Shown one piece after another: positions 42,462 through 64,000 of a DNA stretch of 64,000 nt (positions are counted from its first letter, which is position 1; each line of letters opens with the position of its first letter). Under the pieces are notes generated by a model. That model was not told the DNA's origin and ran no database searches. It worked only from the letters and a program-made list of their open reading frames with translations. The position numbers and the translations under genes are program-made. Source of the DNA: a virus. The DNA lies in IMG/VR virus record IMGVR_UViG_3300023179_007063, positions 1 to 64,000 of that record; one strand, given 5' to 3'.

Positions 42462-42467
42462 AGCACA

Positions 42468-43639: not shown

Positions 43640-43645
43640 TCATCT

Positions 43646-43674
43646 ATCATACGACAAATCTGTGTATTGAACAA
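43646..43674 (-). promoter_or_regulatory. Sigma70-type promoter TTGTTC-N17-TATGAT, leaderless spacing
   Basis: -10 is 6 nt before GTG 43639. Confidence 0.55.
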
Positions 43675-43676
43675 GA

Positions 43677-44201: not shown

Positions 44202-44279
44202 TCTCCGGGCGACTAAGTAGATTCCTCTCTTAAATAGTAAGAATTTTAAGTCTTAAAGAAAAAATAGGAATTCAGAGAA

Positions 44280-46295
44280 ATGGCAAATTTCAGAGACGCA
44301 GTGTTCGTAGATCCGAACAAATTAATACGCGATGATGCAGATATCATATTTGTTTCCGATCTTTTTGAAGAAGACTACGTCGGCGGTGCAGAGCTGACAA
44401 CTGAAGCTCTCATCCAGGAATCTCCCTACAAAATTCAGAAATTGCACTCAAGAGATGTGAAGTTAGCTCACCTGTCACAAGGCGTAGCTAAAACGTGGCT
44501 CTTCGGAAATTTCTCACAGATTAATCCCGAGCTAATCCCCAGCATCATTGCGAACCTTAAGTACTCGGTCTTAGAGTACGACTACAAGTATTGCAAGTAT
44601 AGATCACCAGAGAAGCATGAAGCATCTACTGGTGATAAGTGTGACTGCCAGAACAACCTATCGGGAAAGCTGGTCTCTGCTTTCTATTACGGTTCATTGT
44701 GCATGTGGTGGATGTCAGAGAAGCAGAAGCAAAGATATCTGGAACTGTTTCCGTTCTTGTCTGAGAAAGACAACATCGTACTATCTAGTGTATTTTCAAA
44801 AAATACTCTGGGCACCATCCAGATCCTACGAACAGCTGCTTCAAAGAACGAACGTAAGGGCTGGGTTGTCCTTGGTTCTGACTCTTGGGTAAAGGGGGCA
44901 GAGGCTGCCAAGAAGTGGTGCGAAGACAACGGCAAAGATGCTCAAGTCATTTGGAACTTGAGATACGATGAGACGCTAGCTAAGCTTGCAGCAGCTGAGG
45001 GTTTTGTTTATCTGCCAGCCGGCGCAGACACTTGTCCTCGAATGGTCATCGAAGCGAAGTTGCTAGGATGTAAGCTCGAGCTGAATGACAACGTTCAGCA
45101 CAGAGACGAAGAGTGGTTTGCAACCGACGACATCGACAGCATTCACGACTATCTATATGCAGCTCCTACAACTTTCTGGAACGTGATTCGACACCTCATG
45201 GATAAGAAGCCGACGATCTCAGGCTACACAACGACATACAACTGCGTAACACAAGGTTATCCGTTCGAGCAGAGCATCAGGTCCATGATGCAGTTCTGTG
45301 ATGAGGTATGCGTAGTCGATGGAGGATCTACTGATGAGACACCCGAGAAGCTCTTTCAGCTTCAGATGGAGAACAGCGGTCTAGACGGCAAAGGTCGAGA
45401 AGACTTCATGCTTAGTATGGAGACCGGTCCCGATGGGATCAAACTTCGAGATGCTATGGAAAAGCTCAATGAGATTTCCAAGGTCAAGGTCAAGTTCATT
45501 GCTAGAGACTGGTCACATCCACGTCATGCTGTGTTCGATGGCATGCAGAAGGCCGAGGCTAGGAAGATGTGCATGGGAGAGTTCTGCTGGCAGATGGATT
45601 CCGATGAGATAGTGCACGAAGACGACTTCTCGAAGGTGTCTGACTTGTGTAGCAAGATGCCTAAGAACGTTGATCTTATATCGCTCCCTGTCGTCGAGTA
45701 TTGGGGCGGCTCTGAAAAAGTTCGTGTCGACATACAGCCCTGGAAGTGGCGTCTCAGCAGAAACCAGTCGTACATAACTCACGGAATTCCCGTAGAGCTA
45801 CGTGCCAAAGATGGAAATGGAGACGTCTATGCTTCGAGTGGAACAGACGGTTGTGATCTGATCCACACAGAGTCAGGAGAACGTATACCGCACCTTACTT
45901 TCCACAACGAAGACTCTGAAAAGTTGAGGCTAGCTGCTATGTCAGGCAACGCCGCAGCACTCAAGCAGTATGAGACGTGGTTCAATGCCGTCGTAGAAAA
46001 CTTACCGGGCGTACACCACTATTCTTGGTTTGACATTCCCAGAAAGATGAGACTCTATCGTGACTACTGGACACGTCACTGGAACTCTCTGTTCAACAAG
46101 TCTCTCGAAGACACTGCAGAGACGAACATGATGTTTGATCTACCTTGGGCTGAAGTGACAGAAGAGATGATCGAGGCCCGTGCGAAAGAACTAGCAGAAA
46201 AGACGGGAGGTTGGATCTGGCATCAGAAGTGGAATGGTCAGAATATACCTTCGATCAAGTGCGGTAGAAGTCAACCAAATCTAATGGCTCTTTGA
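44280..46295 (+). CDS. Two-domain glycosyltransferase (GT-B-like + GT2)
   Basis: GGAELTT, KG..., DTCPRMVIEAKLLGC; then TTTYN..VVDGGSTDET..WQMDSDE. Confidence 0.85.
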   Translation: MANFRDAVFVDPNKLIRDDADIIFVSDLFEEDYVGGAELTTEALIQESPYKIQKLHSRDVKLAHLSQGVAKTWLFGNFSQINPELIPSIIANLKYSVLEYDYKYCKYRSPEKHEASTGDKCDCQNNLSGKLVSAFYYGSLCMWWMSEKQKQRYLELFPFLSEKDNIVLSSVFSKNTLGTIQILRTAASKNERKGWVVLGSDSWVKGAEAAKKWCEDNGKDAQVIWNLRYDETLAKLAAAEGFVYLPAGADTCPRMVIEAKLLGCKLELNDNVQHRDEEWFATDDIDSIHDYLYAAPTTFWNVIRHLMDKKPTISGYTTTYNCVTQGYPFEQSIRSMMQFCDEVCVVDGGSTDETPEKLFQLQMENSGLDGKGREDFMLSMETGPDGIKLRDAMEKLNEISKVKVKFIARDWSHPRHAVFDGMQKAEARKMCMGEFCWQMDSDEIVHEDDFSKVSDLCSKMPKNVDLISLPVVEYWGGSEKVRVDIQPWKWRLSRNQSYITHGIPVELRAKDGNGDVYASSGTDGCDLIHTESGERIPHLTFHNEDSEKLRLAAMSGNAAALKQYETWFNAVVENLPGVHHYSWFDIPRKMRLYRDYWTRHWNSLFNKSLEDTAETNMMFDLPWAEVTEEMIEARAKELAEKTGGWIWHQKWNGQNIPSIKCGRSQPNLMAL

Positions 46296-46308
46296 GAGAA
46301 GGAACCTA

Positions 46309-47034
46309 ATGAAAATTATAGACATAAGGAAGAAGCTTGAAGAATTGGGAACAAGTGTCTCAAGCATTCCACTTGGAGATTTTGACTATATTGGAAAATT
46401 TACAGCAGAAAGAATGAGAGATAGGGGGTCAGATCTCTATAACAAAGTAGGGGCCTTCTATAGATCGAATTACGAAAGAGGAATTTTGATCAGTACTCTT
46501 ATCAAGACCTATAAGATTGAGTCAGTTTTAGAGATAGGTTTTGGTAGAGGATATTCTACCTTCTGTGCTGCAAAAACATTTGATGAGCTTGGTATACAAG
46601 GGAAGATACACACAATTGATCCTAATTTCGATCAAAACCTAATTCAGAGTCTAAAAAGTGTATTTCCTCAAAAATGGTTCAGCTATATAACTTTTATGAA
46701 TGGAACATCAAGAGATGTTCTTCCATCTATTAGAGAAGAATATGATCTCATATACATCGATGGAGACCACTCATATGAGGGAACAAAATTTGACTGGGAG
46801 ATGACTAAAAACAAGTGGAAAAAGTGTCTTCTATTTGATGACTATCATCTACCAACAAAGAACGACCCGGGAATTCAATGCAGAGAATTGATCGATACTA
46901 TCGAAGATCCTTCAAAAGAATTGATCATAGGAGATAGAAGAATATTCTTTGATGATAGAAGACTACCTGACGATAAGATAGACTACGGTCAAGTCCTATT
47001 GACAAAACAGGGAATCATTAGCAATGACTGGTAA
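46309..47034 (+). CDS. SAM-dependent methyltransferase (Methyltransf_24-like)
   Basis: VLEIGFGRGYST, TIDP, YIDGDHSYE, FDDY. Confidence 0.88.
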   Translation: MKIIDIRKKLEELGTSVSSIPLGDFDYIGKFTAERMRDRGSDLYNKVGAFYRSNYERGILISTLIKTYKIESVLEIGFGRGYSTFCAAKTFDELGIQGKIHTIDPNFDQNLIQSLKSVFPQKWFSYITFMNGTSRDVLPSIREEYDLIYIDGDHSYEGTKFDWEMTKNKWKKCLLFDDYHLPTKNDPGIQCRELIDTIEDPSKELIIGDRRIFFDDRRLPDDKIDYGQVLLTKQGIISNDW

Positions 47035-47749
47035 TAGATTCGTGTTTGTGTGTCCAATGTTTAATGCATCCAAGACGCTTGAGAGACTTTTACACTCACT
47101 CTATGGACAGTCATACGAAGACTGGAAAATCATTATACTAGATGACGTTTCAGACAAGAACGATTCTATGCGTTGCAACGAGATTATCTACTCGTTTAGA
47201 AATTTCGGCTACGGCAAGATCAAGATCATTCACAACTCAGAGAAGAAGTGGGAAGTTGCAAATGTTCTTCATGGCATCTCGATGTGCGATGATAACGACA
47301 TCGTCTGCAGGATAGATGCTGATGACTGGTTGACCGATCTGGATGCGCTAGCAATCATAGACTCGACCTATCAACAGACAGGATGTGATGCTCTTTGGAC
47401 TGCTCATCGGTGGAGCTTTAGCGACAAGAACATCAGCGGTCCCATGCCTGAAGATGCTGATCCTTATGTGTTTCCTTGGGTTTCAAGTCATCTGAAGACG
47501 TTTCGAAAGAGCCTCATCAATGACGTCAAAGACGAGAACTTTAGAGGGGAAGATGGCAACTACATTCGTAGAGCCGGCGATCAAGCAATCTATCTTCCCG
47601 TTCTCAAGAAAGCAAAGAAACGCTTGTTCTTACCGCGAGTGATGTACCACTATACTATCAAAGACGTCCCAGAGACCTATCAAACTGATGACGCCAGGTT
47701 TCAGAGAGACGAAGCTGTCTTCTTGAGGAAAAGGGGTTACATAGAATGA
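47024..47749 (+). CDS. Glycosyltransferase family 2
   Basis: PMFNA, QSYEDW, ILDDVSD, RIDADDWL. Confidence 0.9.
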   Translation: MTGNRFVFVCPMFNASKTLERLLHSLYGQSYEDWKIIILDDVSDKNDSMRCNEIIYSFRNFGYGKIKIIHNSEKKWEVANVLHGISMCDDNDIVCRIDADDWLTDLDALAIIDSTYQQTGCDALWTAHRWSFSDKNISGPMPEDADPYVFPWVSSHLKTFRKSLINDVKDENFRGEDGNYIRRAGDQAIYLPVLKKAKKRLFLPRVMYHYTIKDVPETYQTDDARFQRDEAVFLRKRGYIE

Positions 47750-48114
47750 AATCTACCGTAAACGAAACGATTACAAAGCTTCTGGTAGAGAGGTTGCAGT
47801 GGAGGAAAGAACAAAAGCTTGACACGTCTACCTGCTCAGAGATATACCAAGACATCTTCTTTACTCTTTCTGAGATAGTGAAAGAGGCTAACACGCCGCT
47901 TAGCAATGAGTCAGTGAACCTGCTGTCGCAAATGTACTATGACAGTGTGACAGTACAGACGTCATCAGGTCCCATGGAGCTAGATCCTAACATCTTCACC
48001 CAGCGTGCCAAGATAGAAAATATCCCAACAAAGGAGCTAGCTCTTCTTGCTACGATGATGAATGGAACACCCTATGGCGACATCTTCGTCGGTGCTGTCA
48101 AGAGGCGGTCTTGA
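47746..48114 (+). CDS. Hypothetical protein
   Basis: Coupled ORF, 122 aa. Confidence 0.65.
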   Translation: MKSTVNETITKLLVERLQWRKEQKLDTSTCSEIYQDIFFTLSEIVKEANTPLSNESVNLLSQMYYDSVTVQTSSGPMELDPNIFTQRAKIENIPTKELALLATMMNGTPYGDIFVGAVKRRS

Positions 48115-49052
48115 AGGTACACGTCGACAATGTCGACCCAGCATCAAGAAGTGGTCCTAACTCTTTTGCATTTCGACTAACAACAGAGCTTGTCAAGCGA
48201 GGTCACACTGTCGCTCTAGACAGTGGAAAAGATGCAGACGTCTCTCTCATTTTCATAGAGCCTTCGGGAAGACAACTTGCAAAGCGAACAGTACAACGTC
48301 TAGATGGAATATGGTTTGCACCTGACGAGTTCCACCACAAGAATTCAAACATCAAGCAGATTTATCACCAAGCTGACCATGTCATATGGCAGTCTCAGTT
48401 TGACAGAAACATGACGACTACCTGGTGGGGTTCTCCTCGAGAGGGTTCAGTTGTCTCAAACGGCGCCTCAAACAGTTACAAGAAGTTTGACGCTGTAGAG
48501 GCTCAGATGGGTCTCCTCAGAGAGAAACACGAGAAGATCTTCGTGTGTTCTGCGAACTGGCATCCTCAGAAGAGACTGAAGGACAACATCCGTCTCTTTC
48601 GACACCTCAAGACCCACTATCCCACAGCGTGTCTCATTGTCATGGGATCTAACGGACACAACGGTGGCGAGTCTGACGTGTACGTAGTGGGAAACCAGCC
48701 TCACGATGTGTGCATGCAAGTCTTCGAAGCATCGGACTGGATGTTACACCTCGCGTGGCTAGACCACTGTCCCAACACCGTAGTAGAGTCCCTGTCCGTA
48801 GGAACACCAGTCATCTGCACAGAAGACGGAGGAACACGAGAGATTGTGGGAGACTATGGCATTGTCCTTCGCGAAGACGTGAAGTACAACTACGAGCTGA
48901 AAGACTACGACTCGCCCCCTCCTATTGACGTGACACAGGTAGGTATCCTACCATCGAAGAACGACCTGGGTGACCACCCAGACTTATCGATAGAAACAAG
49001 TGCAAGTAACTACATTAGAATATTCGAAGATTTACTAAAGAAGATACCATGA
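48111..49052 (+). CDS. Glycosyltransferase family 4 (GT-B)
   Basis: SGPNSF, QRLDG, KRL, DHCPNTVVESLSVGTPVI. Confidence 0.85.
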   Translation: MKVHVDNVDPASRSGPNSFAFRLTTELVKRGHTVALDSGKDADVSLIFIEPSGRQLAKRTVQRLDGIWFAPDEFHHKNSNIKQIYHQADHVIWQSQFDRNMTTTWWGSPREGSVVSNGASNSYKKFDAVEAQMGLLREKHEKIFVCSANWHPQKRLKDNIRLFRHLKTHYPTACLIVMGSNGHNGGESDVYVVGNQPHDVCMQVFEASDWMLHLAWLDHCPNTVVESLSVGTPVICTEDGGTREIVGDYGIVLREDVKYNYELKDYDSPPPIDVTQVGILPSKNDLGDHPDLSIETSASNYIRIFEDLLKKIP

Positions 49053-49945
49053 ACAAAGTCTACGTTCTACCACCTCGAGAAGATTGGATTGTTGACAGGT
49101 TTGTCAAAGAGTGGAATGAAGACAACTCCGACATTAGTGTGCATCACCCGAAAGATGCACAAGTTGTGTGGCTACTAGCAGACTGGTGTTGGGAGCGACT
49201 CTGGAGAAGTGGTGCGCTGAAAGACAAGAAGGTGATCACAACTGTGCACCACATAGTACCAGAGAAATTCGGACATCAGCAACGCCAAGAGTTCGATGTA
49301 AGAGACAAGATCACAACTGCGTATCACGTCTATAACGAGAGGACACTAGACTTTATTCGTCCGATGACAGACAAGCCCGTACACTTCATCAAATACTGGG
49401 CAAATCAGAAAATCTGGAATGTAACTGAGTCGAAGTCAGAACTGCGCAAGAAGTACGACATACCTGAAGATGGTGTGAAAGTAATTGGATCATTTCAGAG
49501 AGACACTGAGGGTCACGATCTCAAGAGTCCAAAGCTGGAGAAAGGTCCCGATCTTTTTGCTGACTACGTAGGAAAGCTGGCGGAGAAACCCTTCGTTCTA
49601 CTTGCAGGCTGGAGAAGACAATACGTGATCAGTCGCCTAGAGACTATGGGCATTCCTTACAAGTACTTCGAAAGGCCCGATCAAAGCACAGTCAACGAGC
49701 TTTATCAGTGCTTGGACTTGTATGTTGTTTCAGCTAGACACGAAGGAGGTCCACAGTCACTCATCGAATGTGGACTTACTAATGTACCTGTCATCTCAAC
49801 TCCCGTTGGAATTGCCGAACAAGTTCTACCGAGCAGTGCGATAAATGTCGATCTCGCAAAAGCAGAACCTGCAATACCCGATGTCGACAGTTGGAAACTG
49901 CCAGACGGCTATTTGCTGTATAGAAAGCTGATAAATTCTCTCTAG
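49049..49945 (+). CDS. Glycosyltransferase family 4 (GT-B)
   Basis: EKGPD, DLYVVSARHEGGPQSLIECGLTNVPVISTPVG. Confidence 0.85.
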   Translation: MNKVYVLPPREDWIVDRFVKEWNEDNSDISVHHPKDAQVVWLLADWCWERLWRSGALKDKKVITTVHHIVPEKFGHQQRQEFDVRDKITTAYHVYNERTLDFIRPMTDKPVHFIKYWANQKIWNVTESKSELRKKYDIPEDGVKVIGSFQRDTEGHDLKSPKLEKGPDLFADYVGKLAEKPFVLLAGWRRQYVISRLETMGIPYKYFERPDQSTVNELYQCLDLYVVSARHEGGPQSLIECGLTNVPVISTPVGIAEQVLPSSAINVDLAKAEPAIPDVDSWKLPDGYLLYRKLINSL

Positions 49946-49972
49946 AGTGTGGTACCTTATGTCAAGGTACAC

Positions 49973-50109
49973 ATGAAGATAGCAGGTATTTGGTCAGGTC
50001 ACGATTGCTCGTATTGCATACTTGATTCCGGAAAACCGGTTGCTTCTTGGGAACCAACATCGACTATTTATACTTTCCCGAGTACAACAAGATCTTGAGG
50101 AGAAAGTGA
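49973..50109 (+). pseudogene. Carbamoyltransferase (NodU/CmcH family) remnant with near-total internal deletion
   Basis: ATG 49973 reads MKIAGIWSGHDCSYCILDSGKPV (family N-terminus). From 50041 another frame reads CFLGTNIDYLYFPEYNKILRRK* (family C-terminus); its TGA overlaps the GTG of the next gene. Confidence 0.8.
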
Positions 50110-51038
50110 AAGTCTTCTTCAACAGACACCTGAGGCGTACACCCTGGGGAGGTGGAGTCCATTTTGCTACTGGTCTAGCTGACTACTTGGAGCATAATGG
50201 ACACAAAGCAACAACTGAGTACGAAGATGACGTCGATGTCATTCTAATGTTAGACCCCCGAGATGACGAAGGTTTCGGAAGAGTAGAACATCTGATATCT
50301 TACAAAAAACATCTTCGAGAAAAGGGCAGAAATGTAAAAGTAGTTCACAGGATAAACGATACTGACGTAGCAAGAGGAACAAATTTCCTAGTCGACCTCA
50401 ACATCAAGGCAAATTCGGCTATAGCTGATGAGACTGTCTTCATAAGCTCGTGGTTGAAAAACCACTATGAAGACAGAGGATTTAGTCGAAATAGCAGCGT
50501 CATAACAAATGGTTGCAATCAAAAGTGGTTTTACCCGAGGTCAACAAACAGCATAGAAGGCCCAGTTAGAGTAGTCACACATCACTGGTCGGACAACTAC
50601 AACAAGGGATTTGATGCATACATTGAGCTTGATAAGCAGCTTTCTCATAGAAGCGACATAGAATTTACATACGTCGGAAGATACTTCAAAGGCTACGCAC
50701 CTACAAATACAAAAATCATACAGCCTCTATATGGAATGCCACTAGCGGATGAGCTTAGAAAGCACGACGTGTATCTAACAGCAGCACGCTGGGAAGCGTG
50801 TGGAATGCATCACATCGAAGCTTCTTCTTGCGGCCTACCCGTAGTATATCACAGAGACGGAGGAGGCATCAATGAAGTCTGTGAATCACACGGAATTCAA
50901 TTCGAAGACCCGTCCAGAGTGTGCGATGTCATCTTAGAAGCCTTTAAACAACGCATCGAGCTATCTTCAAAAATTGCATACGAAAAGCTAGACAGTGATC
51001 AAGTAAATGCAATGTACTTGAAGGTGCTGTCAGTATGA
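50106..51038 (+). CDS. Glycosyltransferase family 4 (GT-B)
   Basis: Likely start GTG 50106 (MKVFFN..PWGGG); HHWSDNYNKG; EACGMHHIEASSCGLP. Confidence 0.85.
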   Translation: MKVFFNRHLRRTPWGGGVHFATGLADYLEHNGHKATTEYEDDVDVILMLDPRDDEGFGRVEHLISYKKHLREKGRNVKVVHRINDTDVARGTNFLVDLNIKANSAIADETVFISSWLKNHYEDRGFSRNSSVITNGCNQKWFYPRSTNSIEGPVRVVTHHWSDNYNKGFDAYIELDKQLSHRSDIEFTYVGRYFKGYAPTNTKIIQPLYGMPLADELRKHDVYLTAARWEACGMHHIEASSCGLPVVYHRDGGGINEVCESHGIQFEDPSRVCDVILEAFKQRIELSSKIAYEKLDSDQVNAMYLKVLSV

Positions 51039-51973
51039 AGATCATTGCCATAACTCCTGATAGAAAGAGAGACTATACAACAGAGCTCACACTGGAGGGT
51101 CTTAGAGATCTAGGTTGCAATGTAATCGTATCAGATGCAGGAAATGGCATAGAAGAAGCTGCATCCGAAGAGTCGATACTTGAAACTCACGATGCAGACG
51201 CTGTCATAGCTTTCTTTGGTAAAGTTAGAGGAAATAGACCTCCGAAGTATCATCTCCTAGACGATCTAAAGAAGAGATACAAGACAGCCTACATCGATGG
51301 GAGCGAGTGGACATGTACAGGTTATCCAAGTGAAGGTCAGATGTCTGACTCTTTGTCAAAGCCAGAGAGGCGAAGAGGTCATCCTTGGATTAATCAGCAC
51401 ATGAAAGACATCACAGATTTCTACTATAAGAGAGAGTGTTATCCACAAGATCTCGAAGAAGGAATCATTCCGCTTCCATTTTGTCTATCAAGTCGACACA
51501 TATCTGAGACAGTCAATAAAGACATAGACGTTATGTGTGTTTTTGGTCACAGTCTAACAGGTATGAGAAGAGAAGTAGTTCAAGAGTGCATGAATCTCAG
51601 AAGCAAGACTTCGTACAACATAGTAATAGCCGACAATTTAGATTCTCTCACTTATAGAAGCGTACTGTCTAGATCTAAAATTGTCATCGACGCCTGGGGA
51701 GGCGGAGACACCTGTGACAGATTCTTCGAAGCCATAGGCTCGGGCGCGTGCTGTCTATATCAGAGATACAATGTAGTAGTTGAGAATCCTTTCAGTGATT
51801 TCGAAAATGCTGTTTCGTATTGGGATACATCCACCTTGATAGACAGACTATCGATGCTGTTATCTTCCCCAGAGATTAGTAGGTTGATAGGTGAAAATGG
51901 AAAACACCACGCCATGAAATACCATACAGCGGCTATAAGAGCACAAAAAATACTCAACAATTTTCAGGTGTAG
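51035..51973 (+). CDS. Glycosyltransferase (CgeB/Glyco_trans_1_2-like)
   Basis: YYKRE, KDIDV, SKIVIDAWGGGDTCDRFFEAIGSG, IGENG..HAMKYHT. Confidence 0.78.
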   Translation: MKIIAITPDRKRDYTTELTLEGLRDLGCNVIVSDAGNGIEEAASEESILETHDADAVIAFFGKVRGNRPPKYHLLDDLKKRYKTAYIDGSEWTCTGYPSEGQMSDSLSKPERRRGHPWINQHMKDITDFYYKRECYPQDLEEGIIPLPFCLSSRHISETVNKDIDVMCVFGHSLTGMRREVVQECMNLRSKTSYNIVIADNLDSLTYRSVLSRSKIVIDAWGGGDTCDRFFEAIGSGACCLYQRYNVVVENPFSDFENAVSYWDTSTLIDRLSMLLSSPEISRLIGENGKHHAMKYHTAAIRAQKILNNFQV

Positions 51974-51976
51974 ACA

Positions 51977-55788: not shown

Positions 55789-55791
55789 GAA

Positions 55792-56355
55792 ATGGGAAGT
55801 CTAGATAAGAACGTTCTTGCAAGCATATTGAATAGTCACAACGCAGCTTTAGAAGACTTCCCAATTTTTATAGAGACGGGAACTCATTTAGGTACGACTA
55901 GCGCAAGGATGAGTTCACTTTTTAGAGAAGTTCACACAATTGAGATATCCGATCTTTATTACGAAGAATCGAAAAAGTCGCTTAATAGACTACAGAACGT
56001 AAAAACTTATTTGGGTGATTGCGTAGATTTGCTTCCGTCGATACTTTCATCTTGTGTTGGAAATACAGTCTTTTGGCTTGATGGTCACTGGTCTGGCGGG
56101 ACGACGGGGAGAGGTAAAGATGATTGTCCTGTTCTCGATGAATGCAAAATAATAAACAACTATTTGAGTCAAACATGTTCTAAGTCTATCATAGTAATCG
56201 ACGACTATAGACTGTTTGGTGAAATAAAAGAACACAATTGGAAGAACATCACCGTCAATAATATCAGATCGATCTTTCCAATTGAAAAGATTCGTACTGA
56301 TATGATTAACAATAAGGTCGACTGCTACAGCATCTGTGTCTCTTACGAGAAATAA
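55792..56355 (+). CDS. SAM-dependent methyltransferase-like protein
   Basis: FIETGTHLG, HTIEI, GDC, FWLDGHWSGG, IDDYRLF. Confidence 0.78.
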   Translation: MGSLDKNVLASILNSHNAALEDFPIFIETGTHLGTTSARMSSLFREVHTIEISDLYYEESKKSLNRLQNVKTYLGDCVDLLPSILSSCVGNTVFWLDGHWSGGTTGRGKDDCPVLDECKIINNYLSQTCSKSIIVIDDYRLFGEIKEHNWKNITVNNIRSIFPIEKIRTDMINNKVDCYSICVSYEK

Positions 56356-56376
56356 ATGCATACCAATAACAATCAT

Positions 56377-57360
56377 ATGAAAAAAGCGCTTGTTTGTGGA
56401 GCAGGTGGATTCATAGGATCACACCTCGTGAAGTGTCTCAAGAGAGAGGGATACTGGGTGAGAGGCGTTGATCTAAAACACCCAGAATATTCTTCTACAG
56501 CAGCTGATGAGTTTGTCATTGGAGATTTGAGAGATTTGTCTACTGTGGTTTCTGTCTTACACACAGATACTTCTTGGGGCAGGGGATTTGACGAGGTGTA
56601 TCAGCTAGCCGCAGATATGGGTGGAGCAGGTTATATCTTTACGGGTGAAAACGACTCCAATGTGATGCACAACTCCGCAACAATCAACCTTAATGTCGTT
56701 TCCTCAGTAGTCAAATTCAAGGTGATGCCCCGTGTCTTCTACTCCTCATCAGCTTGCATGTACCCAGCTTACAATCAAGAAGATCCTGAGAACCCAAAGT
56801 GCAGTGAAGAGTCAGCTTACCCAGCAGCTCCGGACAGTGAGTACGGCTGGGAGAAGCTCTTCAGTGAGCGCTTATATCTTGCGCACTCAAGAAACTTCGG
56901 TCTCCAAGTTCGAATTGCCAGATATCACAACATTTTCGGGCCAGAAGGAACCTGGAGGGGTGGCAAAGAGAAAGCTCCTGCAGCGATTTGTAGAAAGGTG
57001 GCAGAAGCAAAAGACGGTGATGAAATTGAGGTGTGGGGTGACGGTCAGCAGACCCGATCTTTCCTCTACATCGATGAATGTGTAGAAGGAACTCGAAAGC
57101 TCATGGACTCTAATTTCGAAGGACCTGTCAACATTGGATCCGATGAGATGATCAAGATACAAGATCTTGTGAAGATGGTAGCATCGTTGGCTGGGAAAGA
57201 TATTCGCATCAAGAATGTTACGGGACCCATAGGCGTCCGTGGAAGAAACTCAGACAACAAGCTAATCGAAGAGAAGCTTTGTTGGAAACCTACATCATCG
57301 TTGAAAGATGGCATCGTCAAGACTTATGAATGGATATTGAATCAAGCAAGCAAGTCATAG
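56377..57360 (+). CDS. NAD-dependent epimerase, GDP-mannose 3,5-epimerase-like
   Basis: GAGGFIG, LAADMGGAGYI, SSSACMYP, YGWEK, RYHNIFGP, GGKEKAPAA, GVRGRNSDN. Confidence 0.92.
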   Translation: MKKALVCGAGGFIGSHLVKCLKREGYWVRGVDLKHPEYSSTAADEFVIGDLRDLSTVVSVLHTDTSWGRGFDEVYQLAADMGGAGYIFTGENDSNVMHNSATINLNVVSSVVKFKVMPRVFYSSSACMYPAYNQEDPENPKCSEESAYPAAPDSEYGWEKLFSERLYLAHSRNFGLQVRIARYHNIFGPEGTWRGGKEKAPAAICRKVAEAKDGDEIEVWGDGQQTRSFLYIDECVEGTRKLMDSNFEGPVNIGSDEMIKIQDLVKMVASLAGKDIRIKNVTGPIGVRGRNSDNKLIEEKLCWKPTSSLKDGIVKTYEWILNQASKS

Positions 57361-57362
57361 AA

Positions 57363-58043
57363 ATGATATGCTACATTCACTATATGATCTCGAATGATCC
57401 TGACAGATCAGATCAAATTTTCAGAGAGATATACGACAGGTTGCAATCTTCATCACTTTTACAGAAGCTCTCTGATGTAAAAATTGTAACTGTAGGAAAC
57501 CACAAATCTCTAAAAACAAACTTTGGCGAGTATGAAAAAGCTCAACAAGTAGATCACAAAGAAAACGTCTTTGAGTACGAGTTTCCAACTCTCTCTAGAG
57601 TATACCAAGATGCACAACTTCTAGACGGCGACACTCCCATCTTGTATCTTCATCTAAAAGGAGCTTCAAAGCCCAAGAATCACTCTGATGATTCTTGGAG
57701 AGAAAGAATGATGGTCGGCGTTCTGGATAAACATGTAGAATGTCTTGAAAGTTTGCAGAATATCAGAGTCGTAGGCATCGATCTAGCTCGAGTAAAAATG
57801 AACGACGGAGAGACATGCCCTGCATATACGGGAAATTTCTGGTGGTCATCTGCAAGACACCTATCGTCACTACCCGACCCATCAGTTGAAAGCATTAAGA
57901 AGTCACATGGACATCTAGTAAAGAGTAGAACCAGCAAGAATCCGTCATCTCCGCGTGGCGATAATCACAGATACCTTGCAGAATTTTGGGTTTGCATGAA
58001 CAATCTTGATAATCCTGCTGGTCTAAGTGTACTATCGGTCTAA
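57363..58043 (+). CDS. Putative glycosyltransferase-like protein
   Basis: YEFPTL, LYLHLKG, WRERM, GNFWW, EFWV; context. Confidence 0.55.
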   Translation: MICYIHYMISNDPDRSDQIFREIYDRLQSSSLLQKLSDVKIVTVGNHKSLKTNFGEYEKAQQVDHKENVFEYEFPTLSRVYQDAQLLDGDTPILYLHLKGASKPKNHSDDSWRERMMVGVLDKHVECLESLQNIRVVGIDLARVKMNDGETCPAYTGNFWWSSARHLSSLPDPSVESIKKSHGHLVKSRTSKNPSSPRGDNHRYLAEFWVCMNNLDNPAGLSVLSV

Positions 58044-59011
58044 TGATCACATTTTTTGGTCTGAATGATAGAGATCACATACAAGAATTCCAACACCGCT
58101 TGTTGGAAAGAAATGTTGGTCCTGATAGCGTGCATGACAAAAGTCTATCTACAGAATCCATAGGAAGAAATCTTTCTGCCTTCGTGTGGCAAGAAGATGG
58201 AAAAAGACTGCTCGTAATACTAGACGTCGACGACGGTAGCGGAGGAACACCTGCCGACTGTAAGATAGTCTGGCCGTCTTACAACAACATACTTCATCGT
58301 TATAGACCTCACGACGTAATGGTGTTGAAGTCACAGGTTCATCCCGTAGATGAGTACAATCAGTTCTATCCATTCAAAGAAGACGTTCTACCCATAGGTG
58401 TTTTTAGCAACAAAATAAAAGACGTCTTCAGTATGAGAGAGAAATTTGCACCTGTCACAAAAGACATCGACGTCTTTTTTGCGGGCGGTCTCAAGCATTC
58501 AAAGAACAGACCATATGCTTGGCCCAAGAATAGAGACATCAAGAGATGGTGGTCAGGAGCATCTGTCAGGGGATACGACAAGCTCTTAGAGATAAGAGAG
58601 AATAGAAGGGACATAAAATTCGAGCTATTCGACGAATCTGTATCACCAGATGACTTTTACAATCTCGTGAGAAGAAGCAAAATATGCATCGATCTACCCG
58701 GTGTCGGTCTTTCTTCAAGAAAATTCTATGAATTCATGGTTTTTGGTAAGTGCGTTTTGTCGCTTAGACAGCAACTCACGCCCTGGGAATGCCAAGAGAA
58801 CGTTCACTATAGATCAATGGGAGAAGATCTAGACTTCGAAACGCTAGAAAGTGAAATAGACAACCTCTTGAGATCAGATGAATCACGAATTGCAATAGAA
58901 GAGAATGTTCGATCGATAGAGACACAACTCACACTTGAACACATGATCACAAGAGCTGAAAGATCTATAAGAGAAAAAGCTAAAAATGCAACCCAAAGAC
59001 TCACGTACTAA
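58043..59011 (+). CDS. Glycosyltransferase (GT-B, exostosin/CgeB-like C-terminus)
   Basis: KDIDVFFAG, RSKICIDLPGVG..RKFYE..GKCVL. Confidence 0.72.
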   Translation: MITFFGLNDRDHIQEFQHRLLERNVGPDSVHDKSLSTESIGRNLSAFVWQEDGKRLLVILDVDDGSGGTPADCKIVWPSYNNILHRYRPHDVMVLKSQVHPVDEYNQFYPFKEDVLPIGVFSNKIKDVFSMREKFAPVTKDIDVFFAGGLKHSKNRPYAWPKNRDIKRWWSGASVRGYDKLLEIRENRRDIKFELFDESVSPDDFYNLVRRSKICIDLPGVGLSSRKFYEFMVFGKCVLSLRQQLTPWECQENVHYRSMGEDLDFETLESEIDNLLRSDESRIAIEENVRSIETQLTLEHMITRAERSIREKAKNATQRLTY

Positions 59012-59765
59012 CACAGTTGGAATTCTAGGGTTTGGAGAGATAGGTCGCGCTCTACACGAGGTTTATGCTTTAAGTAGCAAAAGCTTCAATGTCAAAGTCA
59101 AGGACTTAGAGAGAGATGACGGTCTGGTCGACTTAGATGTGCTAAACATAGCATTGCCCTTTAACGACTCTTTTGATTTCATTCGGACCGTTGAAGAGGC
59201 TGCAATTCTCTCTGGGTCAAAGATTGTAATCATTCACTCTACAGTACCTGTAGGCACAACAAAGAAGCTGAAGCAGTCACTAACGTCTGCAGCGGTTTGT
59301 CACTCACCCTGCAGGGGAGTTCATCCGAATCTCTTCGAAGGAATTATGACTTTCGAGAAAATCATCGGAGCTACTTCGCAAGAAGATGCGCGCTTGGCGT
59401 CTATCCATCTTGAAGAGCTAGGAATTAAGACGCGTATTTGTACCAATTCAGAGACTACTGAGTTAGCAAAGCTACTAGACACGACGTATTACGGTCTATG
59501 CATTGCATTTCATGGCGAGGCTGCTAAAGCATGTGAGAAGCTTGGAGCCGACTTCGAAGATGTCATGACTTCATACAACACAACATACAATGAAGGCTAC
59601 ACAAAACTAGGAAAGAAGAATGTAGTTAGACCAGTACTACATGCACCTACTAACGGCATTGGCGGACATTGCGTGGTTCAAAATGCTGAACTGTTAAAGA
59701 AGCAAATTGAGTCCGACGTATTAGATTTGATTATCTCATACAAGAAAGCTAATCAGCATGAGTAA
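58986..59765 (+). CDS. UDP-glucose/GDP-mannose dehydrogenase family, short form
   Basis: GFGEIG, HSTVPVGTT, ELAKL, GIGGHC. Confidence 0.85.
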   Translation: MQPKDSRTNTVGILGFGEIGRALHEVYALSSKSFNVKVKDLERDDGLVDLDVLNIALPFNDSFDFIRTVEEAAILSGSKIVIIHSTVPVGTTKKLKQSLTSAAVCHSPCRGVHPNLFEGIMTFEKIIGATSQEDARLASIHLEELGIKTRICTNSETTELAKLLDTTYYGLCIAFHGEAAKACEKLGADFEDVMTSYNTTYNEGYTKLGKKNVVRPVLHAPTNGIGGHCVVQNAELLKKQIESDVLDLIISYKKANQHE

Positions 59766-60693
59766 GTCAATTGCAGTTATTGGTCAAGGATTCGTCGGCG
59801 GGTCTCTCACCACAGTATTTTCTGAGAGAAACTTTGAAGTCTATGCCTATGACAAAGCAGGCAACTACGCAACGGGAGCCTGGAGAAGCGGCGAAGACGG
59901 AACGAGACTGCCACAAAGGCCAACATCCATCAAAGACCTAGTTGAACTTTGTGAATCAAAAGAAAACTTTTCCAACGTCTACTTCGTGTGTCTTCCGACT
60001 CCCATGTACGAGGACGGCTCGGCGGACCTCAGAATAGTGGAAGGAGTGCTAGAGGAGTTAGCATCTGTCCCTGGTGAGAGGATCGCAGTTGTCAAGTCCA
60101 CAGTTCCACCTGGTTCTACAGAGAAGTGGAACGAGGCGTTCGGACCTCGAGGTCTCCACGTGGTCTTCAACCCAGAGTTCCTCACAGAAGCCAACGCGCT
60201 TGATGACATGCGCAACCAGAACCGCATCATCCTCGGCGGACCTCGTCCTTGGATCAACGAAGTAAAGCAAGTCTTCCAGACTGCATTCCCGAAGGTTCCA
60301 CTAATCAAAACGTCTAGCACTACGGCTGAAATGGTGAAGTACATGACCAACAACTTCCTCACCGTCAAGGTAGCCTTCGCTAACGAGATGGCACAGATCT
60401 GCGAGGCTCTAGACAAATCCGGTCTAAATGTGGACTATGACAAGGTGGTCGAATATGCGAAGTACGACAGGCGCCTAGGAGAGAGTCACTGGAGTGTACC
60501 TGGCCCTGACGGCGATCGAGGTTTCGGAGGCCACTGCTTTCCGAAGGACATTAATGCTATGATCAGAGTTGCAGAGAGTTTAGACGTGTGCCCCTTAGTC
60601 CTACAATCTGCATGGAACAAGAACAGAGAGGTCAGAAAAGACCTAGACTGGGAGAAGCAAGTAGGTCGCGCTGTCTCCAAGAAAACCTGTTAA
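59758..60693 (+). CDS. UDP-glucose/GDP-mannose dehydrogenase family
   Basis: GQGFVG, LPTP, KSTVPPG, NPEFL, EMVKY..N, GFGGHCFPKD. Confidence 0.92.
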   Translation: MSKSIAVIGQGFVGGSLTTVFSERNFEVYAYDKAGNYATGAWRSGEDGTRLPQRPTSIKDLVELCESKENFSNVYFVCLPTPMYEDGSADLRIVEGVLEELASVPGERIAVVKSTVPPGSTEKWNEAFGPRGLHVVFNPEFLTEANALDDMRNQNRIILGGPRPWINEVKQVFQTAFPKVPLIKTSSTTAEMVKYMTNNFLTVKVAFANEMAQICEALDKSGLNVDYDKVVEYAKYDRRLGESHWSVPGPDGDRGFGGHCFPKDINAMIRVAESLDVCPLVLQSAWNKNREVRKDLDWEKQVGRAVSKKTC

Positions 60694-60723
60694 TTGAACT
60701 GTTGAGTCTCTGCACTGTATGGT
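60694..60723 (+). promoter_or_regulatory. Sigma70-type promoter TTGAAC-N18-TATGGT, leaderless spacing
   Basis: -10 ends 6 nt before ATG 60730; no SD sequence. Confidence 0.5.
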
Positions 60724-60729
60724 CTTACA

Positions 60730-61545
60730 ATGCAAGACAAGTCGTCCTTCGAGATTCTTCCGACAGGAAAGCCGCACGTTTCTTTCTCTGAAGTGAAACA
60801 GTGGAAGGAGTGCTCCTTCCGACACCACCTCGTTCACGTCAAGAAGCTCGATGTCTTCAAGCCTTCACCCGTGCTAGAGTTCGGTACTGCAGTACACGCG
60901 GCGTGCGAGGACTACCTGTTGACACGCGTCATGAAGGTAGAGATCGCACACGCAGCGATACAGGACGCCTGGAAGAAGAACGAAAATATCGAAGAATTCA
61001 ACGAGCGTTCCCTCAATGAGGCGCTCAGAGATTCTTCTGCCATACTCTCTGAGGTCCCGGCGTTCCTCGATGAGACCTTTCCCGAGTGGACCGTGGTGGA
61101 CGCTGAACACGAACTCTATGAGTCCATCGAGGGTCATCCGCACGCCTTCAAGGGATTCATCGACGGAGTCATCAAGGCGAAGGGCAAGAAGGGAGAGGAC
61201 CTCTACTGGATCCTCGACTGGAAGACCTCTGCGCGAGGCTGGTTCCGCGAGAAGCGGTCAGACGACATGGTGAAGGCGCAGTTGGCGCTCTACAAGAACT
61301 TCTGGCACAAGAAGAATCCCCAGGTCCCGTTCAAGGACATCCGTTGCGGTTTCGTCATCCTCAAGAAGAGTGGTAAGCCTGGTACTCACTGTGAACTCTT
61401 CACCGTTCCCATGGGTGAGGTCCCCATCACGCGGTCGCTCAAGGTGGTGAGTAACATGATCGCATCTGTCAAGCGGGGCATGTCAATCAAGAACAAGAGT
61501 TCATGCACGTACTGTGAGTTCCGAGAGACAGAACACTGTCCGTAA
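60730..61545 (+). CDS. PD-(D/E)XK exonuclease, Cas4/AddB-like with Fe-S staple cysteines
   Basis: SFSE...C, GTAVH, GFIDG, LDWKT, QLALY, CTYC..C. Confidence 0.88.
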   Translation: MQDKSSFEILPTGKPHVSFSEVKQWKECSFRHHLVHVKKLDVFKPSPVLEFGTAVHAACEDYLLTRVMKVEIAHAAIQDAWKKNENIEEFNERSLNEALRDSSAILSEVPAFLDETFPEWTVVDAEHELYESIEGHPHAFKGFIDGVIKAKGKKGEDLYWILDWKTSARGWFREKRSDDMVKAQLALYKNFWHKKNPQVPFKDIRCGFVILKKSGKPGTHCELFTVPMGEVPITRSLKVVSNMIASVKRGMSIKNKSSCTYCEFRETEHCP

Positions 61546-61572
61546 TACTTCAGCGTTGTTTCATTTCATGAG

Positions 61573-61897
61573 ATAGTTCTTATAGAATTATCGACACTGC
61601 AATCCTGAAAGTATGAGTCCAATTTTTTCCATCATGTCAAAAATGCATGCCCACGAGATATGGACAAACGATGCAAAAAGACTGGAAACAATTGCTTCGA
61701 TAGGGTATAGAATCCTCGTCATACGGGAGAGCGAATACAAGAATGGATCTTGGGTTGATAAGCTCGACCGATGGCTGGAGGAAAATGGAAAAGAAAAAGA
61801 TATTGATACTGTCAGACCATCCGTGAACGACCACAGCTCAGCGGATGTAAAATTGGGTGAATTGCTGGAAACTCGTGGGATAGACACCACAGCGTGA
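61573..61897 (+). pseudogene. Eroded Vsr/DUF559-like (EDxHD-type) homing endonuclease
   Basis: Fragments across shifting frames: IVLIE, HCNPE, YESNFFHHVK, MHAHEIWTNDAKRL..GYRILVIRESE. N-terminus and the GDYW part of the core are missing; frame runs over the GT exon 1 into the intron. Confidence 0.6.
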
Positions 61898-63301
61898 CTG
61901 GAAACGGTGAGCGCGAAGGTCAAAAAGTCTTACTATACGACAATCAGCAGCCAAGCTCCTAAGGAGAAATTCTGGAGAAGGTTCAGAGACTACGGTTAGC
62001 CTAAATCAAAAAGACACGGCAATGATCCGACAGCGCCCAACACCAAATCAAGTATGGTGATGATATAGTCCAAAACTTTTTGTAAAGTGAGCACCTCCGG
62101 AGTAGGCACACAGGCCCGATGGCTTGTATCAGGTCTGATAGAAACAGGCAAGTATTCGTTCAGATGCTTCGGCGGAGCGATTAAGCATGACAACTACGAT
62201 ACGGTCGTAGTCAACCCTGACTTCATCATCAAGCCTACAAACGGCTTCGGTGATAGAAATCTTCTACGCAAGACGCTGGCTCAGGTGAAGCCTGATGCCC
62301 TGATGCTGTTTACTGACCCACGTTTCTTCATGTGGGTCTGGGAGATGGAGGACGAGATCCACCAGATGTGCCCAATCGTCTATTGGCACTTGTGGGACAA
62401 TCCTCCCTGGCCTGAGTTCAATCGTCACATCTATGAGTCGACCGACCTCGTCAACTGCATCAACTATCCGACATACAAGATGGTACACGAGAGGTTCCCA
62501 GAGAAGACAAACTACATTCCTCACGCTGTTCCCGAAGATCTATACAAGCCGCTTCCGAAAGAAGACGTTAGGAAGTTCAAAGCAGCGCTCTTAGGCAATG
62601 AAAAGGTCGACCACTTTACGCCGATGTACGTCAGTCGTAATGCGAGGAGAAAAGTTCCGAGCGACATCATAGAGTCGTGGAAGATTTTCTTGGATGACCT
62701 TGAGGCAAAGTACGGCCACAGGAAGGCGACTCTGATCCTCCACACAGACCCACTTGATCAAGAGGGAACAAATTTATTTATGCTTGTCGACCTCTTTGGC
62801 GTGAAAGACAACGTCGTCTTCTCCAAGGAGAGAATAGGCTTCCAGGAGATGAGCACCCTCTACAACGTTTGCGACTGTGTCGTCAACCGGTCTATGAATG
62901 AGGGCTTCGGTCTACCTGTTCTAGAGTCGATTCTATGTGGCAAGCCGCCGATAGTTGTGAAGACAGGCGGTTTGACACGACAGGTATACGACGATGAGAC
63001 AGGTGAAAAATACGGTATCGGTCTGGACCCTGAAGTTCGAACTCTCGCTGGTAATCACTTCGTTCCCTACATCTATGAAGACTTCGTGTCTCACAAGACT
63101 TTCGCAAATGCATTCATGGAGATGTATGAACTCGGTCCTGAGGGGAGAGCGGCACTTGGCAACAAGGCAAGAGAGAGAGCGAAGAAAGAGTATAATCTCA
63201 AGAAAGTCGTCTCTGACTGGGACAACACTCTCGATTCAACGATCTCTAGGTGGAGAGATGATAGAAAGTCCTTCGACAGATGGAGCAAGATAGAACTATG
63301 A
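61785..63301 (+). CDS. Glycosyltransferase family 4, split by group I intron (exon 1 61785-61824, exon 2 62088-63301; 417 aa spliced)
   Basis: GGAGG RBS + ATG 61785. Spliced N-term MEKKKILILSDHP-L-STSGVGTQARW; RNARRK; NEGFGLPVLE. Confidence 0.9.
61825..62087 (+). ncRNA. Group I self-splicing intron, 263 nt, no internal ORF (probably subgroup IA)
   Basis: P1 CATCCGT/GCGGATG with U-G at the 5' splice site; P10 GCTCA/TGAGC; P3 TTGGGTG/CGCCCAA; P4 TTGCTG/CAGCAG; P7 GACTA/TAGTC within GTTCAGAGACTA and GATATAGTCC; P8 CACCA/TGGTG; terminal G at 62087. Confidence 0.95.
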
Positions 63302-64000
63302 GCACCACCACTCTTAAGAAATCAGTACTTCTCCGCGGACCGCTTCTGACTCAGTCAGGTTACGGAGTCCATGCACGACAGATCGCGGCTTGGGCGATAG
63401 GAAGAGACGACTTCGAAGTGCAAGTACAAGCTACTCCGTGGGGTGAAACTCCGTGGATCATAGACGAAAGCGCTTGTGGTGGTCTCATCAGAAGCATCAT
63501 GGAAAGGACAGTCGACCCAGGAAATAAGCTGTACGACATCACAGTACAGATTCAACTACCGAATGAGTGGAATCCATCGCTAGGTCGATTCAACATTGGC
63601 GTCACGGCAGCAGTAGAGACTGACACGTGCCACCCATCCTGGCCAGAATATTGCAACAAAATGTCAGCTGTGGTTGTTCCATCAGAGCATGCAAAGAGCT
63701 GCCTGTTGTCATCTGGTAAGATCACAGTCCCGATCCTAGTGATACCCGAAGCTTACAACGATGCAATCGTTGCCGCCGAGAAGACACACATCGATGAAGT
63801 CAAGTTCTCAACACCTTTCAACTTCTTAGTCTTCGGTCAGATGACAGGCAGCAATCCAGAGAATGACAGGAAGAACCTCTTCTACACTGTCAAGTGGTTC
63901 TGTGAGGCGTTCAAAGATAACCAGGAAGTAGGCCTGGTCTTGAAGACTAATATGGGAAGAAACACAAAGCTCGATAGACGACTCGTGACTAACTTGTTGC
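63298..64000 (+). CDS. Glycosyltransferase family 4 (partial, runs off window end; absent from ORF track)
   Basis: ATG 63298 overlaps the upstream TGA: MSTTTLKKSVLLRGPLLTQSGYGVHAR...QLPNEW...VETD...VVPSEHAK...DRKNL. Confidence 0.85.
   Translation, partial: MSTTTLKKSVLLRGPLLTQSGYGVHARQIAAWAIGRDDFEVQVQATPWGETPWIIDESACGGLIRSIMERTVDPGNKLYDITVQIQLPNEWNPSLGRFNIGVTAAVETDTCHPSWPEYCNKMSAVVVPSEHAKSCLLSSGKITVPILVIPEAYNDAIVAAEKTHIDEVKFSTPFNFLVFGQMTGSNPENDRKNLFYTVKWFCEAFKDNQEVGLVLKTNMGRNTKLDRRLVTNLL

Follow-up and report, generated by a model that had tools for sequence, protein, structure and literature searches.

A soluble glycan assembly island in a large T4-like lake phage and its possible virion acceptor

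The 64,000-nt window analysed here is the opening 64 kb of a linear viral contig of 97,087 bp in IMG/VR (IMGVR_UViG_3300023179_007063; completeness rating 29%), which originates from a lake-water metagenome and belongs to an uncultured phage. The last 20 kb of the window hold nearly all of an island of 23 genes, numbered g1 to g23 (44280–64482, ending 482 bases past the window end), that is rich in glycosyltransferases (GTs) and sugar-tailoring enzymes. We favour, at a probability of about 0.45, the reading that this island directs an export-less cytoplasmic assembly of glycans on phage virion proteins, which we infer to be the acceptor.

The encoded enzymes would form a phage-run assembly line that works wholly in the cytoplasm. 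Activated sugars would be made or tailored by an epimerase (g15), a UDP-glucose dehydrogenase (UGDH)-like dehydrogenase, O-methyltransferases and a 2-oxoglutarate (2OG) hydroxylase, with a carbamoyltransferase added in relatives; genes for a lipid-carrier primer, a flippase, a polymerase or an exporter are absent. Four lineage-wide GT domains (two in g1, one each in g22 and g23) may place a conserved inner glycan on a conserved acceptor, and a swappable cassette may add a strain-specific methylated outer glycan, a division comparable with that between the core and the O-antigen of lipopolysaccharide (LPS). The acceptor would be at least one protein of the phage's own virion, from the fibre, baseplate or head decoration, to which sugars would be attached ahead of particle assembly or in its course, with the consequence that surface sugars would differ among particles of related phages. 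In its fullest form, which we hold slightly more tentatively, the proposal is that a strain-specific 'serotype' may be carried by the virions of an entire lineage of T4-like phages of ~300 kb from fresh and marine waters, which has cultured cousins among Flavobacterium and Microcystis phages: the four-domain GT core would prime a virion protein, on which the soluble enzymes of the swapped cassette, up to about 20 in number, would build a methylated heteroglycan with L-galactose or other rare sugars, independent of a lipid carrier, giving an O-antigen-like variable coat.

Organization and integrity of the island

All 23 genes, and all island features described below, lie on the + strand. Most neighbouring genes overlap by 1–34 nt or abut, and the only three gaps are at 49946–50021, 60694–60729 and 61546–62086, in agreement with the single co-directional, coupled run proposed in a preliminary description made from the sequence alone. 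That description counted about 13 GT-like genes; 11 are supported here, amounting to 12 GT domains of both the GT-A and the GT-B fold. Pfam names one GT2 (g3) and six GT-B enzymes (g5–g8, g22 and g23), and four further GTs (g1, g9, g12 and g17) lie beyond Pfam naming. No membrane segment was found in g1–g23, the top Kyte–Doolittle 19-mer scoring 1.36 where the cut for a membrane segment was set at 1.6. The island is positioned between a helicase block on one side and baseplate genes on the other; no fibre genes occur within 44280–64482, and fibre-like genes are located at 77.9–95 kb of the contig.

The same description allowed for a chimeric contig, in which a host polysaccharide locus had been misjoined to phage DNA with a break in coverage near 44.2 kb. 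A separately assembled contig of 22,956 nt, from the probable source run, spans 42000–61862 with 0 mismatches and a flat depth of 15.5, thus crossing the junction evenly, and the same junction (helicase...f174 / g1) is common to about 30 independent related viral contigs. These two observations rule out a chimera. In addition, the baseplate genes continue on the same contig, island pieces are present in two further studies (at ~95% and ~100% identity), and GC content and skew shift little at the 44.2-kb junction. We regard the chance of an assembly artefact as negligible.

A conserved frame around a variable cassette

Mapping of the island and flank proteins onto 77 viral contigs that bear g1 homologues (33–68% identity; contigs up to 324 kb) revealed a conserved frame, with g1 on one side and g20, g22 and g23, followed by the baseplate genes, on the other. 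Between the two sides lies a cassette of 0 to about 20 kb. The cassette is absent from locus L045, which reads g1–g20–g22–g23–baseplate, and has three extra genes in L036 and L042. The distance from g1 to g23 is 20 kb in this phage, 24.6 kb in relative G003 and 26.4 kb in G002, and the G002 cassette is almost wholly unlike that of this phage. A more distant group has the order g20–g22–g23–g1 (N half)–g3. In the ~300-kb clade, the island is located immediately upstream of, and co-oriented with, the baseplate and fibre operon.

The frame gene g1 (44280–46295) encodes a bifunctional GT of 671 residues. Its AlphaFold2 (AF2) model, with a predicted local distance difference test score (pLDDT) of 90.4, combines a compact GT-B domain (residues 18–310) with a GT-A/GT2 domain carrying a DSDE motif (residues 309–655). 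The GT-B domain resembles sucrose-phosphate synthase (6kih), BshA and PglA (VIA Z 20.5). The GT-A domain (Foldseek expectation value, E, 7e-9) has SunS/ThuS, TarS and K4CP as its best matches, and the profile matches of g1 are K4CP and GmaR. The virion reading gains from this domain, since its best structural match is the peptide GT SunS and its profile reaches the flagellin GT GmaR.

On the other side of the cassette, g20 (60730–61545) is a PD-(D/E)XK (Cas4/RecB-like) nuclease, assigned by Pfam (E 5e-18) and by synteny, that immediately precedes the GT pair in this clade and as far afield as the Flavobacterium phage immuto and the Microcystis phage Mel-JY01. The first GT of the pair, the GT4-like g22, is interrupted by a group I intron without an open reading frame (ORF) of its own (61825–62087; Rfam RF00028, 77.2 bits, E 2e-18). 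Exon 1 (MEKKKILILSDHP; 61785–61824) aligns with the N-termini of intron-less homologues, and exon 2 (62088–63301) carries the Pfam match (E 2e-12; phrog_2170). The intron falls after codon 13, and five relatives carry an uninterrupted gene that reads through the junction. The stretch that separates g20 from exon 1 (61546–61785) contains no clean ORF. The nuclease and the intron are both additions to the previous gene list. The second GT, g23 (63280–64000 in the window and on to 64482 of the contig), is likewise GT4-like by Pfam (including GT4-conflict, 27.4 bits); it is 33% identical to immuto gp180 and to a Mel-JY01 protein, and the baseplate genes follow directly downstream.

The phage itself belongs to a T4-like group. 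Its contig encodes a T4-like large terminase, major head protein, PhoH and helicase, the terminase being 39–42% identical to those of immuto and Mel-JY01, and the completeness rating implies a phage of about 300 kb; a longer assembly of this phage, of 218.8 kb, is also on record. Megablast with the island and tblastn with g1 against 50,697 phage records gave zero matches. The 77 related contigs represent ~300-kb aquatic T4-like phages that probably correspond to the published 'moraphages' (Perez-Hernandez et al. 2025, PMC12619734), which are aquatic, reach 307 kb, have predicted Bacteroidota hosts and share a core of gp6, gp25, gp19, PhoH and UvsW, with four core orthogroups annotated as GTs and variable genomic islands left unexplored. 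Compared by described features only, the two groups agree in size, T4-like core, PhoH, UvsW and four core GTs; the island, its frame-plus-cassette layout and its gene content are not described in that paper.

Among cultured phages, immuto (vB_FspM_immuto, host Flavobacterium sp. LMO8) and Mel-JY01 share the order of PD-(D/E)XK nuclease, two GTs (together termed the triad) and a small sugar cassette. The cassette of immuto comprises a GT2, two WecE-like aminotransferases, a methyltransferase, a mannosyltransferase, an epimerase and a WcaA-like GT, and that of Mel-JY01 a GT-A enzyme, a methyltransferase and a GT.

The 645 cassette ORFs of about 60 relatives fall into 200 clusters, of which 120 are singletons. 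By hydrophobic segments, 624 ORFs have none, 20 have one and a single ORF has two; no multi-pass protein was found among them, and flippase, polymerase and ABC permease families are absent from the 25 Pfam families that occur most often in 148 cassette representatives. The lack of multi-pass membrane proteins and export genes, noted before for this island, thus extends across the lineage. Pfam assigns the 148 cluster representatives to GT2s, at least seven kinds of methyltransferase, NTP- and CTP-transferases, PfkB, SIS and HAD proteins (heptose path), PIG-L, radical SAM and GFO/IDH/MocA proteins, to which single checks add a DegT aminotransferase, a B12-radical SAM protein, a thiamine pyrophosphate enzyme and an intact carbamoyltransferase. 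The locus resembles an O-antigen locus in diversity and content, minus every membrane step.

This likeness bears on the alternative that the island remodels the host envelope. Soluble GTs at the inner membrane face would then act on host undecaprenyl-linked or LPS-core intermediates, and host flippases or ABC exporters would carry the glycan out, altering the surface of the infected cell so that, for example, superinfection is blocked or progeny fail to re-adsorb. The cassette repertoire (heptose path, DegT, cytidylyltransferases and GT4-, GT2- and GT8-like enzymes) does resemble LPS and O-antigen loci, and bacterial O-antigen GTs are likewise soluble or peripheral. Methyltransferases can terminate chains in ABC-dependent O-antigen pathways, and those of the island could do the same. 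Envelope modification is also the literature's reading of the GT-rich hypervariable islands of pelagimyophages and cyanomyophages (PMC7029224, PMC12801897). However, no priming phosphoglycosyltransferase, Wzx, Wzy, ABC permease, or GtrA/B/C- or Oac-type protein was found in the about 60 relatives and their 645 cassette ORFs, which argues against a lipid-linked, exported product. Known serotype-converting phages encode GtrA/B/C- or Oac-type membrane proteins. Moreover, Bacteroidota phages and a cyanobacterial phage share this conserved GT frame, and the envelope pathways of these hosts differ. We judge envelope remodelling unlikely, though still a serious contender.

Acceptor of the glycan

A virion acceptor is favoured in the first place by the gene content, solubility and export-less layout of the island, and by its lineage-wide frame-plus-cassette architecture. 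Soluble phage GTs and methyltransferases without export genes, the combination of mycobacteriophage-type virion glycosylation, are what the island holds. The reading also draws on the position of the island before the baseplate and fibre operon, in the same orientation, in the ~300-kb clade, on the presence of a prolyl-4-hydroxylase (P4H)-type oxygenase, and on precedents in the capsid and tail glycans of mycobacteriophages, in phage XacN1 and in Megavirinae. Fibre-like proteins encoded beyond the window (82551–84659, 87957–90665 and 90699–94082 of the contig, G000) contain collagen-like runs, (GPT)5 and 14 G-X-Y; (GPT)n repeats are densely glycosylated in BclA, and their occurrence in fibre-like proteins is in keeping with a virion acceptor. 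These fibre-like proteins include one of 1127 residues with many 'SHAEG' repeats.

The word ATACTTA(A)GTC is found 24–25 nt upstream of head and fibre gene starts and 10 nt upstream of f174 (window 5373, 6184 and 44211, − strand; contig 90674, + strand), and is a candidate phage promoter. In the divergent intergenic region before g1 (44202–44279), ATTTTAAGTC ends at 44252, 28 nt upstream of the ATG, and TTAAATAG ends at 44237. ATTTTAAGTC is a near-match only to the head and fibre motif; such a near-copy, at the same spacing before g1, would tie the island to virion genes. TTAAATAG-like words recur ahead of g1 in close relatives, and TTAAATAG was found ahead of no other gene in the contig. A scan for sigma-70 promoters and terminators gave sites no more numerous than in shuffles.

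Several observations weigh against a virion acceptor. The upstream motifs are weak as promoter evidence for g1. Adjacency to the baseplate genes is not conserved, the module of immuto and Mel-JY01 being located among replication and lysis genes. The virion reading does not account for the conserved PD-(D/E)XK nuclease beside the GT pair. The GT-A and GT-B matches are fold-generic, as T4 DNA alpha-glucosyltransferase also reaches Z 16.8 against g1. The structural proteins, previously called Ser/Thr-rich, are so to a moderate degree: serine plus threonine make up 18–27% compared with a median of 14%, with no extreme tracts, as is usual for fibre proteins. The richest 40-residue window of the major capsid protein reaches 0.38 at residue 174, not at the C-terminus, and those of the fibre-like proteins 0.42–0.45. 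Finally, in a search of five records, (GPX)4 repeats turned up in G004, the closest relative, but in none of G001–G003 or immuto, which rules out collagen-like repeats as a universal acceptor.

DNA is a quite improbable acceptor. In a hypermodification scheme, the GTs would glycosylate a hydroxymethylated pyrimidine, in the T-even style or in that of the 5-hydroxymethylcytosine (5hmC)-glycan clusters of Pyle et al., the cassette would vary in an arms race with modification-dependent restriction, and the PD-(D/E)XK nuclease would destroy unmodified DNA. This scheme would explain why the nuclease is always beside the GT pair, and it is consistent with the score of g23 above the Pfam GT4-conflict threshold. 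LPS-related phage GTs are indeed able to place mono- to trisaccharides, including heptose, on 5hmC (10.1101/2023.12.21.572611). An enzyme of the thymidylate synthase (TS) family occurs in six of nine large relatives; that of G004 has the CMP 5-hydroxymethylase MilA as its best solved match (146 bits vs 86 for thymidylate synthase) and an Asp at the cytosine-specificity position.

The DNA chemistry of a cultured relative points the other way. Liquid chromatography with ultraviolet and mass spectrometric detection (LC-UV-MS) of immuto virion DNA gave canonical dA, dC and dT, with only dG replaced, by fdPreQ1 (10.1101/2023.04.13.536721). Because immuto nevertheless carries the triad and a cassette, this result argues against a DNA acceptor and for a virion one; for the same reason (canonical dC and dT) we rank the host envelope above DNA, keeping the virion first in the previously proposed order of virion, DNA and host O-antigen and reversing the other two. 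In addition, two relatives rated 93% and 100% complete keep g1 (G002 the whole frame) and neither has a TS-family gene. The 97-kb contig (29% complete) yielded no hydroxymethylated-base enzyme. The TET/JBP-plus-C5-methyltransferase route to 5hmC was set aside, as no Tet/JBP protein or C5 DNA methylase was matched in five records, a weak blank given that the Tet_JBP control was silent in all reference genomes. The island oxygenase is of the P4H type and its methyltransferases are O-methyltransferase-like, the G004 hydroxymethylase is encoded apart from the island, in a nucleotide-metabolism locus that includes a carbamoyltransferase but lacks GTs, and twelve GT domains exceed any known DNA glycan by far.

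The G004 locus (L097, G004:171001–190000, positions 8639–13029 therein), from a complete 298-kb relative, places the MilA-like (d)CMP hydroxymethylase between a 588-residue carbamoyltransferase, accompanied by a 221-residue protein, and a short-chain dehydrogenase/reductase (SDR). Thymidine kinase and dCMP deaminase come next, beside a Pol III alpha gene that contains a Hint piece. The locus is a candidate route to carbamoylated hydroxymethyl-cytosine in DNA.

The glycan could also be placed on another cytoplasmic acceptor, such as a non-virion phage or host protein or RNA, or be released as a free soluble oligo- or polysaccharide or glycoconjugate. Every enzyme is soluble, and among the best folds for the GT-B domain of g1 are those of sucrose-phosphate synthase, BshA and GlgM, enzymes with small-molecule substrates. 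Hypervariability among close relatives is, however, hard to explain for a free cytoplasmic product, for which we know of no phage precedent, and we consider an acceptor of this kind decidedly unlikely.

Glycosyltransferases of the cassette

The only Pfam-named GT-A enzyme of the cassette, the GT2 g3 (47024–47749; E 1e-16), is present in 64 of the 77 loci. Four consecutive GT-B enzymes are also named by Pfam: g5 (48111–49052; Glycos_transf_1, GT4-like, E 1e-12), g6 (49049–49945; Glyco_trans_1_4, E 1e-6), g7 (50022–51038), which probably starts at the GTG at 50106, preceded by GAGGAG, and g8 (51035–51973; Glyco_trans_1_2, CgeB-like, E 5e-12). Their neighbour g9 (51977–52867) was missed by Pfam and is a GT-B enzyme by its Atlas features (0.97) and its template modelling (TM) scores of 0.77–0.84 to GT4 clusters. 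Gene g17 (58043–59011) is a probable GT-B-type enzyme: seven of its 24 homologues match Glyco_trans_1_2 and one matches GT47, and blastp aligns it with the C-terminus of g8.

Gene g12 (54368–55165) is, by its AF2 model (pLDDT 95.5), a retaining-type GT-A enzyme of GT6/GT8-like fold with an invariant D118-N-D120. Foldseek matches it to GTA/GTB (the ABO transferases), LgtC, XXYLT1 and LARGE1 (E about 2e-6). There are at least 167 homologues, and on the predicted fold they represent a new GT-A family. Gene g12 and its usual neighbour g11 belong to two large phage families that have no Pfam model and often occur on the same contigs. Sequence searches of the PDB with single proteins (g1, g9 and g12) and with profiles (g11, g12 and g17) gave nothing useful except for the GT-A domain of g1, and hhalign related none of g4, g9, g11, g12, g14, g16 and g17 significantly to the GT, methyltransferase or SDR families of the island.

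Sugar synthesis and tailoring

The best-defined sugar-making enzyme is g15 (56356–57360), an SDR whose match to the Arabidopsis GDP-mannose-3,5-epimerase 2c59 (306 bits, E 4e-90; 89 bits for the next-best family) confirms the earlier assignment and clearly predicts GDP-L-galactose or GDP-L-gulose as the product. Two UGDH-family proteins, g18 (58986–59765) and g19 (59758–60693; TIGR03026, 198 bits, positions 2–297 of 413), had been described as nucleotide-sugar dehydrogenases. The family assignment stands, but both proteins stop near position 295 of a model that has 413 positions, and the UDP-binding domain is missing from each. The catalytic GGHCFPKD is kept in g19 and lost in g18, a degenerate paralogue with no K-D after the Cys. 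Short UGDH forms of about 285 residues recur in 11 relatives, which indicates a family and not an accident of truncation. The proposal that the phage makes its own activated sugars thus holds for an L-sugar, via g15, and is doubtful for uronic acids, the nucleotide-binding domain being absent from g18 and g19.

Of the three methyltransferases listed before, two are clear members of Methyltransf_24: g2 (46309–47034; S-adenosylmethionine (SAM)-dependent and O-methyltransferase-like, Pfam E 9e-16, in 18 relatives) and g13 (55132–55788; Pfam E 2e-8). The third, g14 (55792–56355), is possibly a class I methyltransferase, with faint NCBIfam matches only (E 0.005–0.04). With two or three such enzymes, a methylated glycan is likely, as had been suggested. 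The 2OG-Fe(II) oxygenase is also borne out: g10 (52864–53631; PF13640, E 5e-19) is of the prolyl-4-hydroxylase type.

Comparison with known systems

The claim that this is an undescribed system was too strong, as hypervariable GT islands and moraphage core GTs have been published (PMC7029224, PMC12619734). The nearest published counterpart is the hypervariable 'host recognition cluster' of pelagimyophages and cyanomyophages (Zaragoza-Solas et al. 2020, PMC7029224). GT-rich large cyanomyophages include S-SCSM2R, S-SCSM1 and P-SSM2 (PMC12801897), and thirteen GTs in a single phage genome have been reported (PMC7029224, PMC12801897). Like the island, the cluster is a large, non-syntenic, GT-rich region of an aquatic T4-like myophage, with GT8-like enzymes, UGDH and heptose-pathway genes. 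It differs in holding tail-fibre genes and in its location between VrlC and gp14, whereas the island has no fibre genes, is located between replication genes and the baseplate operon, and is bracketed by lineage-wide GTs and a nuclease. The function proposed for the cluster in print is modification of the host O-chain; the lack of membrane components here points to a cytoplasmic acceptor.

Bacterial Wzx/Wzy- or ABC-dependent O-antigen and capsule loci share with the island nucleotide-sugar synthesis and several GTs, but their initiating phosphoglycosyltransferase (WbaP/WecA type), flippase, polymerase and permease were not found here. The same holds for the integral membrane transferases and flippases of serotype-converting modules (GtrABC, Oac and phage Wzy).

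Closer in principle are systems that glycosylate virions. Mycobacteriophage virions are O-glycosylated (Freeman et al. 2023, as summarised in PMC12619734), and those of the jumbo phage XacN1 contain glycoproteins (PMC5852040). Soluble phage GTs, some with methyltransferases, are reported there to decorate capsid and tail proteins in the cytoplasm, and the island shares this gene content; g23 is weakly similar to actinophage GTs (22–29% identity). Unlike the island, the mycobacteriophage systems as summarised have two to four GTs and no nucleotide-sugar synthesis at such scale, and their acceptors are C-terminal tails of the capsid and tail tube proteins; no such tail was seen here among the major capsid and fibre-like proteins covered. 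In giant viruses, the glycosylation clusters of Megavirinae are clade-specific (PMC10117803), and those of chloroviruses are comparable (PMC9614988). There too, viral nucleotide-sugar synthesis is combined with soluble GTs and methyltransferases in clusters that differ by clade, and rare bacterial-like sugars are placed on virion fibrils or the capsid; the hosts, however, are eukaryotic, the lineage is unrelated and the homology shown goes no further than shared folds.

Two further comparisons concern particular acceptors. The T-even alpha- and beta-GTs and the clusters of Pyle et al. (10.1101/2023.12.21.572611) resemble the island in their LPS-related soluble GTs and diverse sugars, and many relatives have a (d)CMP hydroxymethylase-like gene; these DNA glycosylation systems differ in that no methyltransferase/TET pair is found here, two near-complete relatives lack the hydroxymethylase and the GTs outnumber what a DNA glycan needs. 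BclA of the Bacillus exosporium has densely glycosylated (GPT)n regions (PMC10050317, PMC6222408), and its glycan, which terminates in a methylated rare sugar, is the product of soluble enzymes. The (GPT)n repeats of the fibre-like proteins are alike by analogy only, and they are not conserved in the clade.

What is new here is the gene-by-gene check, the two GT assignments missed by Pfam, the GDP-L-galactose route and the domain-less UGDH pair, together with the frame-plus-cassette map, the lineage-wide census of membrane proteins, the distribution of the hydroxymethylase and the link to the DNA chemistry of a cultured relative. To our knowledge, complex glycans on tailed-phage particles have been established experimentally only for a few actinophages with two to four GTs. 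If abundant aquatic jumbo phages do carry strain-variable virion glycans on the scale of O-antigens, the view of their host range, adsorption, particle stability, grazing and aggregation would have to be revised, and a large part of the LPS-like genes that are classed as 'auxiliary metabolic' and currently interpreted as modifying the host surface would be explained. The island would also represent a lipid-free toolkit for protein glycosylation, including new GT families such as g12. Since immuto and Mel-JY01 carry the triad and a small cassette, the acceptor question is directly testable. Were the host envelope or DNA the target instead, the frame-plus-cassette layout would still mark a major arms-race locus.

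Remaining genes of the island

The 122-residue product of g4 (47746–48114) has no family match, and its gene is nearly always immediately upstream of g5 in the synteny maps of relatives. Gene g11 (53628–54371), the usual neighbour of g12, has 111 homologues, none with a Pfam domain, and no PDB profile match; g16 (57330–58043) has no matches.

The carbamoyltransferase (NodU/CmcH-type) remnant listed earlier is located at 49975–50105. By blastx it corresponds to intact proteins of 541–547 residues in L047, L058 and L010, the last with Pfam Carbam_trans_N/C confirmed on L010:18979–20622. The two ends survive, as 23 N-terminal codons (87–91% identity) and 22 C-terminal codons in another frame (59–77%), after deletion of about 1.5 kb of intervening sequence. 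In another metagenome (run X2), a related strain is missing another 105 bp of the remnant (49985–50091), which fits a dead carbamoyltransferase relic.

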